DNA from: Vulcanimicrobiota bacterium
GTDB lineage: Bacteria; Vulcanimicrobiota; Vulcanimicrobiia; Vulcanimicrobiales; Vulcanimicrobiaceae
DNA: 64,000 nt
Assembly (NCBI GenBank): GCA_963746455.1
Contig: CAVVBA010000004.1
Location: 60,631-124,630 of the forward strand
Direction of reading: 5' to 3'
Part shown: positions 40,258 through 46,889 of the stretch, piece after piece
Layout: every line of letters starts with the position of its first letter
Position numbering within the stretch: position 1 is the stretch's first letter
Translations under genes and position numbers: made by a program
The notes under the pieces: generated by a model
Seen by the model: only the letters and a program-made list of their open reading frames with translations
Told to the model about the DNA's origin: nothing
Databases searched by the model: none

Positions 40258-41097
40258 CTATCGAATGCGGCGGTGAATCTGTTCGTTCTGCGAGACGCGC
40301 TCGAAGCAGCGCTGATTCGGCGCAAGGCGAATCGATTCGCTCGGTCCGAGGACGAGATAACCGCCGCGAGTGAGCGAGTCGAAAATAACCTGGTGCGCGC
40401 GATAAGCGAGTGCCTTGTTGTATTGCGGCAGCATCTCGCGGCACAAGACCAAGTGAAATTCGTTGAACGATCCATCCGAGACGAGGCTGTGCGTCGAAAA
40501 GACGATGTTCCCGCGCAAGGCGGGATCCATCGTGGGCGAGTCGCCCTCGAACGAGATGTAATCCTCGAGCGTCGATTTTCCGCCGGCTTCGCGATAACGT
40601 CGAAACGCGCCGTCGAGCGTTTCGGCGTGAATCTTGCCTTCTTTGGCGCAGGTGATCGCGGTCCCGGATAGATCGGTGGCATAAATCCGTGCGCGCCGGG
40701 CGAGGCCTTCCTCGCGCAAGAGAATCGCAAGGGAATACGCTTCCTCGCCGCGGCCACATCCGACGACCCATGTGCGTATGAGCGGAAACGTCCGCAACAT
40801 CGGCATTATCGTCGCGCGCAGCTCAGCGAATAACGAAGGCTCGTCGAAGAGCTCGCTCGAGCGCGAGCTCAGGCCGAAAACGAACCGATCAAGAGCTTCG
40901 CCATCGTGCAAAATGCGTTCTTGCAGAGCGGAGATCGTTTGCATGCCCTCCGCCCGCATTCGCTCGGCCACCCGGCGCTTGACGAATGCGGGCGCGTAGT
41001 CACGGAAATCGTAGCCGGAGAATCGATTGACGCCTTCGAGAAGAAGCTGCAGCTCGATTTCGGCTACCGAGACGCTGCTCGGGAGCGGTACGATCAC
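40258..41097 (-). CDS. CheR-type SAM-dependent protein-glutamate methyltransferase (stand-alone)
   Basis: GTG at 41097 overlaps the TGA of the upstream kinase (GTGA). In-frame part of ORF 40258-41523. Reads [38 protein letters not shown]. Confidence 0.8.
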
Positions 41098-44000: not shown

Positions 44001-46889
44001 CGAATTTGCGAGGTCAGCTGTGCAGCCAGCTGGTTGACGGAGTCGGTCAGGTCGCGCCACAGACCGGCGGCGCCGGGAACCTCAGCTTGTCCGCCCAGGA
44101 TTCCTTCGAAGCCGACTTCGCGCGCGACGGTCGTGACCTGATCGGCGAACGTTGCGAGCGTATCGATCATGGTGTTGATCGTCTCGGCAAGCTCTTCGAT
44201 CTCGCCCTTGGCTTCGAGCAGCAGCTTACGTTTCAAGTCGCCGTTCGCGACCGACGTAACGACTTTCGCGATGCCGCGGACTTGATTCGTCAGGTTACCT
44301 GCCATCGAGTTCACGGAGTCGGTCAAGTCTTTCCAAACGCCGCCCACACCCGGCACCTGAGCCTGTCCGCCAAGTTTTCCTTCGGAGCCGACTTCGCGCG
44401 CAACGCGCGTGACTTCGGATGCGAAACCGTTGAGCTGATCGACCATCGTGTTGATCGTGTCTTTCAGCTCGAGCATCTCGCCGCGAACGTCGACCGTAAC
44501 TTTCTTCGAGAGGTCGCCGTTTGCGACGGCGGTCGTAACGCGCGCGATGTTACGGACTTGGTTCGTCAGGTTGAAGGCCATCGTGTTGACCGAGTCCGTA
44601 AGGTCTTTCCACGTACCAGCCACGCCGGGCACCTGAGCCTGGCCACCCAAGATGCCTTCCGATCCGACTTCGCGCGCAACGCGCGTGACTTCGGATGCGA
44701 ATGCGTTCAGCTGGTCGACCATGACGTTGATCGTGCCTTTGAGCTCGAGAACCTCGCCGCGCACGTCGACCGTGATCTTCTTTGAAAGGTCGCCCTTCGC
44801 GACGGCGGTCGTGACTTCGGCGATGTTTCGAACCTGCGCAGTCAGCGAGCCGGCCATCGAGTTCACGGAGTCGGTAAGGTCTTTCCACGTACCGGCTACG
44901 CCAGGCACCTGCGCCTGGCCGCCCAGTCTTCCTTCGGTACCGACTTCGCGCGCAACGCGCGTGACTTCCGATGCGAAGGAGTTCAGCTGGTCGACCATCG
45001 TGTTGATCGTACCTTTGAGCTCGAGCATTTCGCCGCGCACGTCGACGGTGATCTTACGCGAGAGGTCGCCTTTTGCGACGGCGGTCGTAACTTCGGCGAC
45101 GTTACGCACTTGGCTGGTCAAGTTACCGGCCATGAAGTTCACCGAGTCGGTGAGATCTTTCCACGTACCGGCGACGTCGGGAACGACGGCTTGTCCGCCC
45201 AGCTTTCCTTCGGTACCGACTTCGCGCGCGACGCGCGTGACTTCGGATGCGAACGCGTTGAGCCGGTCGACCGTTGAGTTGATCGTCGTCTTGAGTTCTT
45301 GAATTTCGCCGCGAACCGCGACGGTAATCTTCTTTGAAAGGTCGCCTTGCGCGATCGCGGTCGTGACTTCGGCGATGTTACGCACCTGGCTCGTCAGGTT
45401 ACCGGCCATCGAGTTGACGGAGTCTGTAAGGTCTTTCCACGTACCGCGCGACGCCTTCGACGACGGCTTGTCCGCCGAGTCTTCCTTCGGTACCGACTTC
45501 GCGCGCGACGCGCGTGACTTCGGACGCGAATGCGTTCAGCTGGTCGACCATCGTATTGATCGTGCCTTTGAGCTCTTGCATTTCACCGCGAACGTCGACG
45601 GTAATCTTCTTTGAAAGGTCGCCGCGCGCAACGGCGGTCGTAACTTCGGCGACGTTTCTGACCTGTGCGGTCAAGTTGCCCGCCATGAAGTTCACGGAGT
45701 CCGTAAGGTCTTTCCACGTACCCGCGACGCCCTCGACGCGGGCTTGACCGCCGAGTCTTCCTTCGGTACCGACTTCGCGCGCGACGCGCGTGACTTCGGA
45801 TGCGAATGCGTTCAGCTGGTCGACCATCGTATTGATCGTGTCTTTGAGCTGCAGGATCTCGCCGCGAACGTCGACGGTGATCTTCTTCGAGAGGTCGCCT
45901 TTTGCGACGGCGGTCGTGACTTCGGCGATGTTACGAACCTGCGCCGTCAGGTTACCGGCCATCGAGTTGACGGATTCCGTAAGGTCGCGCCACGTGCCGG
46001 CGACGCCGCGGACGTCGGCTTGTCCGCCGAGCCGTCCTTCGGTACCGACTTCGCGCGCGACTCGCGTGACTTCGGATGCGAATGCGTTCAGCTGATCGAC
46101 CATGACGTTGATCGTATCTTTCAGCTGCAAAATCTCGCCGCGGGCTTCAACGGTGATCTTCTTCGAAAGGTCGCCGCGGGCGACGGCGGTCGTGACTTCG
46201 GCGATGTTACGAATCTGGTTGGTCAGCGTACCGGCCATCGAGTTTACGGAGTCGGTGAGGTCTTTCCACGTACCGGCAACGCCGCGCACCTGGGCCTGGC
46301 CGCCTAGTTTTCCTTCGGAACCGACTTCGCGTGCGACGCGCGTGACTTCGGATGCGAATGCGTTCAGCTGATCGACCATCGTATTCAGCGTGCGGCCGGC
46401 TCGCAAGAATTCACCCTTGAGAGGACGGCCATCGATTTCGAGCGTGACTTGTTGCGACAGATCGCCGCGCGCGACCGATGCGAGTACGCGTCCAGTCTCG
46501 ATGATCGGATGCGCGAGGTCGGAGATCAGTTCGTTAACGGAGTCGATTGCGACCGACCAATCACCCGTGGCGCCCGAAACGGAGACGCGTTGCGCAAGTC
46601 GTCCGTCACGTCCGACCGTCTGACTGATTCGCTGCAGCTCACGCACGAGTCGCGCGTTCAGCGTTGCGACGTTGTTGAAGGCTTCGGCCAAGTCCGGGTC
46701 GGTGGTGTTCACTGAGAGACGCGCCGAGAAATCACCGCGTCCGAGCGCGCGTAGTGCACTGAGCACCTCGCGATTACCGCCGTTCGAGCTGTGACCGTTC
46801 GATTTCGCGCCGTTGGAACGCGATGTGGACGTAGACGAAGCTGTTGACTTCGCCTTCGGACCGGCAGCGACCGTGACAGGCATATGCAC
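41094..46889 (-). CDS. Giant soluble hybrid histidine kinase: poly-HAMP array (9 x 92-aa units + terminal HAMP)-GAF-coiled coil-HisKA-HATPase-REC-REC-REC
   Basis: Stitched from ORFs 45399-46889, 42665-45409, 42982-43671, 42786-43136, 41845-42870, 42032-42289, 41823-42080, 41391-41753, 41195-41584 and the 5' part of 40258-41523. Repeat consensus [90 protein letters not shown]. H-box [11 protein letters not shown]2 [11 protein letters not shown]. Three receivers (LIVEDD, LVIEDD, LVVDDD). No TM segment seen. GGAG RBS before ATG 46883. Confidence 0.85.
43890..46600. repeat. 276-bp tandem coding repeat array (about 10 units) encoding the poly-HAMP region
   Basis: The core gacttcgcgcgc[ag]acgcgcgtgacttcggatgcgaa recurs near 44385, 44661, 44941, 45217, 45493, 45769, 46045 and 46321 (period 276 bp). 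More diverged copies flank these. Confidence 0.85.

Follow-up and report, generated by a model that had tools for sequence, protein, structure and literature searches.

An AskA-like poly-HAMP hybrid histidine kinase gene followed by a CheR-type methyltransferase gene in a Vulcanimicrobiota genome

Introduction

The DNA analyzed here is a 64,000-nucleotide stretch from an uncultured Vulcanimicrobiota bacterium (contig CAVVBA010000004.1 of assembly GCA_963746455.1; hereafter, the window). It carries the gene of a giant hybrid histidine kinase (HK) with 21 HAMP domains in series. The gene is interrupted by frame breaks in the sequence as given, and the gene of a CheR-type methyltransferase lies directly downstream. 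The best explanation overall, to which we assign a probability of about 0.88, is that of an AskA-like soluble poly-HAMP hybrid kinase with a gene intact in the organism, in which a rod of stacked HAMPs would signal to the kinase core and the CheR protein would methylate the kinase.

Results

The kinase gene and its domain organization

The poly-HAMP hybrid histidine kinase is encoded by a single gene on the minus strand (41094-46883), which was recovered by reading the three frames side by side and joining 15 segments. Its likely start is the ATG at 46883, located 6 nt downstream of GGAG; the GTG at 46889, from which an initial annotation of the window had started the protein, is in frame with this ATG. 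The stop codon is the TGA at 41094-41096. After deletion of 15 inserted bases, the corrected open reading frame (ORF) comprises 5775 nt and 1924 aa without any internal stop, and the encoded protein keeps the H-box His1254, the N, G1, F, and G2 boxes, and all three receiver aspartates. The initial annotation had proposed one minus-strand protein of about 1930 aa with about nine frame changes. The single gene holds; the number of frame changes does not, since 14 switches are visible and 15 insertions underlie them.

From the N-terminus onward, the protein consists of a low-complexity basic tail, the 21 HAMPs, a GAF domain, a coiled coil (the signalling helix), HisKA, HATPase_c, and three receivers. 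Pfam on the corrected protein agrees with the GAF, HisKA, HATPase, and triple-receiver order read earlier from the letters. All the kinase domains given below lie on the minus strand. The N-terminal tail (aa 1-37; 46773-46883) is rich in Ser, Thr, and Asn, contains four K/R and no D/E residues, and is 76-84% identical to the tails of intact orthologues. A crude hydropathy test revealed no transmembrane-like helix among the 19-residue windows of the kinase: the highest Kyte-Doolittle mean, 1.62, sits in charged GAF or receiver strands. This bears out the Ser/Thr/Asn-rich N-terminus without a membrane helix that had been noted at first. Neither a CHASE3 domain nor a transmembrane segment was found in the kinase by Pfam and the Kyte-Doolittle scan. 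No NCBIfam model reached its cut-off for the kinase; BarA, TorS, HrmK, and similar models matched the generic HK and receiver core only.

The HAMP array spans aa 38-995 (43898-46772) and begins with one D1 HAMP, after which come 10 di-HAMP modules, each made of a non-canonical C and a canonical D2 HAMP. Connector motifs identified 11 canonical (GD[LF][SK]) and 10 non-canonical (VGxxGxLGGQA-type) HAMPs; the array is therefore a first HAMP plus ten non-canonical/canonical pairs, or 21 HAMPs in total, instead of the approximately 19 counted originally. The repeats score as HAMP in Pfam, with 317 bits over nine stretches for HAMP and 280 bits over nine stretches for HAMP_2. Spurious SpoIIID and HTH_6 overlaps also fall on the HAMPs, and the same overlaps have been reported for the HAMPs of AskA and AskB (PMC7643160). 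The W[KR]DLT motif occurs nine times at a spacing of exactly 92 aa, and the units, which agree with the consensus unit of the initial annotation, are 80-92% mutually identical, dropping to 36-67% in the last two. Interface Trp is present in every unit, as G(T/V/L)W(K/R)DLT in nine units and as GDW in the first, and the junction glycines are likewise conserved. Nine of the C HAMPs carry the VGxxGxLGGQA connector; the remaining one, the first of the ten, reads differently. At the DNA level, Tandem Repeats Finder reported a 276-bp tandem repeat at 44237-46382 (7.8 copies, 82% matches, 0% indels).

Two HAMPs near the N-terminus are atypical. The first HAMP (aa 38-86; 46626-46772) is of D1 type with a GDFS connector, aligns to AskA HAMP1 in PDB entry 9TRK, and shows a weak HAMP_N3 match over aa 40-58. 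The third HAMP (aa 109-176; 46356-46559), which is collinear with AskA HAMP3, has a Pro in its input helix (AHPIIE) and a lengthened connector.

Past the array, the GAF domain occupies aa 1029-1166 (43384-43798; Pfam GAF_2, E=8e-14). The linker between GAF and DHp reads as an E/Q-rich coiled coil, the signalling helix (aa 1167-1244; 43149-43383). It is followed by HisKA (DHp; aa 1245-1312; 42944-43148), with the H-box SHELRTP and His1254 at 43119-43121, and by the catalytic domain HATPase_c (aa 1360-1477; 42448-42801), with its N, G1, F, and G2 boxes present. The three Response_reg domains are receiver 1 (aa 1536-1637; 41963-42271; Asp1586), receiver 2 (aa 1659-1762; 41585-41899; Asp1708), and receiver 3 (aa 1803-1908; 41145-41463; Asp1853), all assigned by Pfam, as were HisKA and HATPase_c.

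The kinase belongs to the AskA-like poly-HAMP family

A PDB sequence search aligned aa 32-313 of the kinase to 9TRK_A (E=1.7e-109) and 9TRJ_A (E=5e-62), both entitled 'histidine kinase, Gcn4p'. The two represent the 6-HAMP and 4-HAMP GCN4-fusion constructs, respectively, of Myxococcus xanthus AskA (Coles et al. 2026, PMC13446029). The 9TRK alignment covers AskA HAMP1-6, remains collinear across HAMPs 1-3, which are atypical, and shows approximately 70% identity to the solved fragment. The AskA array consists of 21 HAMPs, namely one D1 HAMP and 10 C-D2 repeats, and AskB has 31 HAMPs; the hallmarks of the third AskA HAMP are a Pro kink and a linker insertion forming a beta-hairpin, and tight HAMP stacking is mediated by a conserved Trp and junction glycines (PMC13446029). 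The Pro kink and the linker insertion are both visible in HAMP3 of the window kinase, which thus shares with AskA the number of HAMPs, the D1 plus 10 C-D2 arrangement, the HAMP3 features, the interface Trp, and the junction Gly.

AskA (MXAN_0712), AskB (MXAN_6735), and Amb07 of Sorangium cellulosum have been classified as group-III-like hybrid kinases; AskA and AskB were studied genetically and biochemically, and a receiver of AskA was named 'Rec3' in two-hybrid work (Marcos-Torres et al. 2020, PMC7643160). Like these proteins, the window kinase is soluble, has no upstream sensor domain, and carries GAF, DHp, CA, and multiple receivers past its array. It differs from them in phylum, being from the Eremiobacterota. 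Kinase-type arrays are in general followed by GAF, DHp, CA, and at least one receiver; 4778 such kinases with at least five HAMPs were counted in NCBI (PMC13446029). The GAF-HK region of Myxococcus loci is 60-61% identical to that of the window kinase.

Homologues were collected in several ways. Searched exhaustively with HMMER, 1.84 billion cluster representatives (50%-identity clusters) gave 1601 matches at E<1e-30. Searching by the repeat-rich N-terminus ranked proteins by repeat number and missed the orthologues, which were found with a non-repetitive C-terminal query and a genome scan. The scan, run on one genome per GTDB species, yielded 547 stretches related to the kinase. The part from GAF to the third receiver was covered at E<1e-30 by all 8000 of the 8000 scored candidates, which span Eremiobacterota, Acidobacteriota, Cyanobacteria, Chloroflexota, Gemmatimonadota, and others. 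Larger arrays occur as well: WxDLT is found 14 times in a 2426-codon ORF from Chloroflexia and 11 times in ORFs of 2240-2288 codons from Myxococcus and Hyalangium. Over the whole of its C-terminal 925 residues, the window kinase shows 51% identity to a CHASE3-HAMP-GAF-HK-REC kinase from Chlorogloeopsis; hence, the GAF, helix, HK, and three-receiver block is a widespread core that accepts different inputs.

Judged by its sequence, the kinase is an ordinary member of the known AskA-like, bacterial group III-like poly-HAMP family. The initial annotation had regarded it as an unusual, uncharacterized architecture. That view is not tenable given AskA, AskB, the 9TRJ and 9TRK structures, and the 4778 catalogued kinases: homologues with the identical architecture exist, and some are characterized. 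Because the searches and the literature show the same architecture widely, neither the size, nor the GAF domain, nor the triple receiver is unusual. A more distant likeness is to Aer2 of Pseudomonas aeruginosa (PDB 3VOL, 3LNR), in which concatenated HAMPs also alternate between canonical and divergent conformations and to which the window kinase gave a weak match (3VOL, E=4e-4). Unlike the window kinase, Aer2 is a chemoreceptor with a PAS-haem sensor and a methyl-accepting chemotaxis protein (MCP) output; its five heterogeneous HAMPs belong to another HAMP sequence group and do not form a repetitive di-HAMP array.

A CheR-type gene is conserved downstream of the kinase

Directly downstream of the kinase gene, on the same strand, lies a gene for a 279-aa CheR-type S-adenosylmethionine methyltransferase (40258-41097; Pfam CheR_N and CheR). 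Its GTG start overlaps the TGA stop of the kinase as GTGA. The protein had no NCBIfam match. Among the 73 related loci with enough downstream sequence, CheR was encoded directly downstream of the kinase in 58 and anywhere in the locus in 68, and CheB was found in 22. The arrangement is conserved in Eremiobacterota, Myxococcota, Acidobacteriota, Chloroflexia, a Bacteroidota metagenome-assembled genome (MAG), and Cyanobacteria, with CheR following the kinase in Elarobacter, Cybelea, a Sulfotelmatobacter-labelled MAG, Hyalangium, Blastocatellia, the Bacteroidota MAG, Chloroflexia, and Chlorogloeopsis. CheB joins CheR in Myxococcota, Acidobacteriota, Chloroflexia, and Cyanobacteria. The myxobacterial loci share the downstream CheR with the window and differ in also having CheB and a further receiver protein; the window has CheR alone, with a neighbour that fuses a PP2C phosphatase to HATPase_c_2. 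Across the AskA and poly-HAMP papers PMC7643160 and PMC13446029, CheR or methyltransferase is mentioned zero times. The CheR link might be the sole aspect of the locus that is new.

In the complete genome of Chlorogloeopsis fritschii PCC 9212 (CP170743.1; positions 4846-11476 of the extracted locus), the poly-HAMP kinase is called as two adjacent genes, encoding 709 aa (HAMPs only) and 1491 aa. These are followed by the CHASE3-HAMP-GAF-HK-REC paralogue, CheR, CheB, and a REC-PAS-HK protein.

A precedent for a kinase paired with CheR is the sigma-B module of Bacillus cereus. RsbK is a CHASE3-HAMP-GAF-S-helix-HK-REC kinase; RsbM, a co-operonic CheR-like protein without a paired esterase, methylates the signalling helix of RsbK, and a PP2C protein acts downstream (PMC4574943). 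The pair in the window was likened to RsbK-RsbM by published description. On that basis, the two systems share the GAF/S-helix/HK/REC core, a CheR gene in the same operon, and a PP2C protein. They differ in that RsbK has a membrane CHASE3 input, a single HAMP, and a single receiver, whereas the window kinase has a soluble 21-HAMP array and three receivers; moreover, RsbY carries a receiver domain and the PP2C neighbour in the window shows none in its first 200 aa. By analogy with the S-helix of RsbK (PMC4574943), the signalling helix at aa 1167-1244 is a candidate methyl-accepting segment.

The CheR protein could instead have a different substrate, for example a chemoreceptor encoded elsewhere in the genome, and merely be co-transcribed with the kinase. 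CheR enzymes classically methylate MCPs, and the signalling helix has no MCP-type site, both of which would suit this explanation. We nevertheless consider it unlikely: the adjacency of the two genes is kept across at least six phyla, often in 20-kb loci without an MCP or CheA; the start and stop codons overlap in the window; and RsbM-RsbK is a direct precedent for the methylation of a kinase.

Relation to fungal group III kinases

The top matches of the exhaustive HMMER search were fungal, namely Circinella umbellata KAI7855641.1 (2344 aa) and Coemansia 'histidine kinase osmosensor' proteins of up to 4598 aa. Aligned without gaps to the window unit at aa 294-385, the units of these proteins show 60-75% identity, and their spacing is exactly 92 aa in both Coemansia and Circinella. 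The initial annotation had recognized alternating canonical and divergent HAMP pairs of group III (Nik1/Os-1) type; the fungal top matches and the shared 92-aa spacing support this. The sequences compared were early-diverging ones (Coemansia and Circinella), and Os-1/Nik1 was compared by description. A low-identity match (P0331) that had been taken as a possible fungal Nik1 proved to be a Methanospirillum chemoreceptor. One Coemansia protein, KAJ2256297.1 (P0394, 4598 aa), has WxDLT 26 times, at intervals of 92 aa, along about 2.7 kb of protein sequence. The number usually quoted for group III kinases of Dikarya, five to seven repeats, is far lower. Fungal group III kinases signal via Ypd1-Ssk1 to the HOG mitogen-activated protein kinase pathway and make cells sensitive to phenylpyrroles, dicarboximides, or ambruticin. 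In C. albicans Nik1 (CaNik1), four HAMP pairs of 92 aa are accompanied by one unpaired HAMP (PMC3848655), and kinase-type arrays have been noted in fungi and Amoebozoa (PMC13446029).

The fungal group III kinases (Os-1/Nik-1 of N. crassa, Nik1 of C. albicans, TcsC of A. fumigatus, and Bos1 of B. cinerea) share with the window kinase a cytosolic array of 92-aa HAMP pairs. The similarity weakens downstream of the array. The fungal kinases have no GAF domain, no long signalling helix, and one receiver, whereas the window kinase has GAF, a coiled coil of 78 aa, and three receivers. The Coemansia and Circinella proteins follow the fungal pattern, with HisKA, HATPase_c, one receiver, and no GAF; the DHp helix follows directly on their last HAMP, and the HK core shows 39-42% identity to that of the window kinase.

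These results bear on whether the kinase is a functional counterpart of Nik1/Os-1, that is, an osmosensor with an array that senses osmolarity or fungicide-like compounds. The di-HAMP unit, at 60-75% identity, is common to the fungal osmosensor kinases, AskA and AskB of M. xanthus mediate responses to glycerol and ambruticin (PMC7643160), and one relative adjoins a kdp potassium-uptake operon. However, the bacterial proteins add GAF, the signalling helix, and two more receivers; the identity falls to 39-42% in the HK core; and the ambruticin binder in M. xanthus is AskC rather than AskA or AskB (PMC7643160). An osmosensing role of the fungal kind is thus doubtful for the window kinase. The kdp locus was seen once, in the MAG labelled Sulfotelmatobacter (DATJRY010000003.1; positions 6755-11246 of the extracted locus), in which the kinase-CheR pair adjoins kdpFABC, a possible osmotic hint.

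Frame breaks in the kinase gene

The kinase gene as sequenced shows 14 visible frame switches. A three-way DNA alignment with two intact orthologues resolved these into 15 uncompensated 1-nt insertions and zero net deletions, spanning 41190-45447. The inserted bases lie at 45447, 43526, 43228, 43058, 42842, 42288, 42278, 42186, 42076, 41987, 41836, 41802, 41625, 41491, and 41190; their removal restores the ORF, and all 14 junctions rejoin as predicted for single-base indels.

The closest relatives of the window are three Eremiobacterota MAGs, L006 (OY970278.1, a 3.27-Mb chromosome), L007 (Vulcanimicrobiaceae SPRUCE_46), and L008, which are collinear with the window over the whole gene at 89-92% DNA identity and without a large gap. 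Uninterrupted orthologous ORFs of 1922 aa in L006 and 1931 aa in L007 have an array of equal length. The corrected protein is 96.5% identical to the L006 protein and 96.1% identical to the L007 protein, and its HAMP array is 99.7% identical to that of L006, unit by unit. Ratios of nonsynonymous to synonymous substitution rates (dN/dS; Nei-Gojobori) between the window and L006 were 0.013 for the array, 0.025 for GAF plus helix, 0.057 for the HK core, and 0.038 for the receivers, at a dS of 0.27-0.38. These ratios are indistinguishable from those between L006 and L007. Selection is therefore not relaxed downstream of the breaks, where dN/dS equals that of the pair of intact orthologues.

Similar breaks affect other genes. 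Codon-usage Viterbi segmentation showed frame switches on the same strand every few hundred bases across the entire window (1-64000). A hydantoinase A gene (51249-52138) is split into at least four frames, which in succession match positions 1-39, 43-92, 95-157, and 196-241 of a 291-position hidden Markov model. A malic enzyme gene (53899-55764) and an amine oxidase gene (36446-37258) gave partial domain matches only. The apparent pseudogenes elsewhere in the window are probably consensus errors.

The frame breaks might be real, the kinase being a decaying pseudogene in this strain. In the sequence as given there are, after all, 15 uncompensated indels, clustered in the C-terminal 2.6 kb rather than spread evenly. 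This explanation was rejected as very improbable. The 15 indels are without exception +1 insertions, the segments between them contain neither an in-frame stop nor a degraded motif, dN/dS past the breaks (0.02-0.06) is the same as between two intact orthologues, unrelated genes in the window have the same +1 breaks, and the sister genomes carry intact genes. On these sequence comparisons, the breaks are almost certainly sequencing or assembly errors. The intact orthologues, purifying selection, the all-insertion pattern, and the identical breaks in unrelated genes indicate that the gene is most likely intact in the organism and that the window derives from an insertion-prone assembly of error-prone reads. 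Of 17 single-base insertion sites, 12 abut a CG dinucleotide, as against 27.5% expected (P=3e-4). In being CG-adjacent and array-poor, the insertions resemble a systematic error signature.

That the long array is itself an assembly artefact, arising by spurious expansion or collapse of the repeats, is less credible still: 276-bp repeats are a known assembly hazard and many database homologues are split or truncated at contig ends, but the copies differ by about 18% in DNA (82% identity) without indels and are thus distinguishable, the array length is independently reproduced because L006, L007, and L008 align collinearly without a large gap, and the protein identity to L006, unit by unit, is 99.7%. 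The initial annotation had left both a pseudogene and a misassembly as alternatives; both are unlikely in view of the intact orthologues, dN/dS, and the collinear assemblies.

Other neighbouring genes

Divergent from the kinase gene, a gene on the plus strand (47075-48616; Pfam) encodes a 513-aa fusion of a PP2C phosphatase (SpoIIE) and an anti-sigma-kinase-like HATPase_c_2 domain, preceded by 200 N-terminal residues without a domain assignment. It is kept beside the kinase in 31 loci, all of them from Eremiobacterota. The fusion protein may be a downstream partner that provides a partner-switching output.

On the other side, an intact gene for a REC-HD-GYP (HD_5) response regulator (39192-40256, plus strand) faces the CheR gene in convergent orientation. 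Among NCBIfam models, the best match was to the NosR family of c-di-GMP phosphodiesterases, short of the cut-off, and the gene is not beside the kinase in L006 or L007. A 479-aa PAS-HisKA-HATPase_c sensor kinase is encoded at 33250-34689 on the plus strand, about 6 kb from the locus.

Discussion

The mechanism that we propose for the kinase draws on AskA for the array and on RsbK-RsbM for methylation. By analogy with AskA, the 21 HAMPs of the dimer, canonical and non-canonical in turn, would stack tightly into an unbroken four-helix rod that has no sensor domain upstream. Such an array would act as a tunable conformational modulator or sensor, along the lines of the gearbox or conformational-tension model proposed for AskA. 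Its state would pass via the last HAMP into GAF, then through the signalling helix (aa 1167-1244) to DHp, and would set the autophosphorylation of His1254. The phosphoryl group would be relayed to, or competed for by, Asp1586, Asp1708, and Asp1853 of the receivers. The target of the translationally coupled CheR protein is probably the kinase itself, at glutamates that most plausibly lie in the E/Q-rich signalling helix; such methylation, comparable to that of RsbK by RsbM, would set the basal activity or gain of the kinase. The fusion of PP2C and anti-sigma kinase may carry the output in this phylum.

Several observations weigh against parts of this proposal. The role of the array has been stated to be unclear even for AskA (PMC13446029). 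The MCP-type consensus [ASTG]xx[EQ][EQ]xx[ASTG] is absent from the signalling helix; in the entire kinase it matched twice in HAMP units and once in the F-box region. No receiver was detected in the first 200 aa of the PP2C/HATPase_c_2 protein, even at E<=5, and phosphotransfer to this neighbour is therefore not supported. Regarding the frame breaks, only one of the 15 uncompensated insertions falls in the array, which makes up 51.5% of the gene (P=3e-4); a uniform error process fails to explain so uneven a distribution.

Extended to the family, the same reasoning raises the possibility that AskA-type poly-HAMP kinases as a class are methyl-accepting kinases, with CheR, which is nearly invariant at these loci and often translationally coupled, providing, alone or together with CheB, chemoreceptor-like adaptation or gain setting through sites in the signalling helix or the HAMP rod itself. 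We put this forward tentatively.

As a gene, the locus opens no new question. The kinase adds one member from the Eremiobacterota, a little-studied phylum, to a family that has been catalogued, structurally solved, and partly studied genetically in Myxococcus. The errors in the assembly call for caution with the other apparent pseudogenes in the window. The identity of 60-75% between bacterial and early-diverging fungal di-HAMPs, set beside about 40% between the kinase cores, bears on the origin of the kinases that are fungicide targets. The conservation of CheR across phyla suggests a testable route for the modulation of sensor-less HAMP rods. If the kinases are indeed methylated, methylation would answer the question left open in the AskA papers of how an array without an input domain is modulated.

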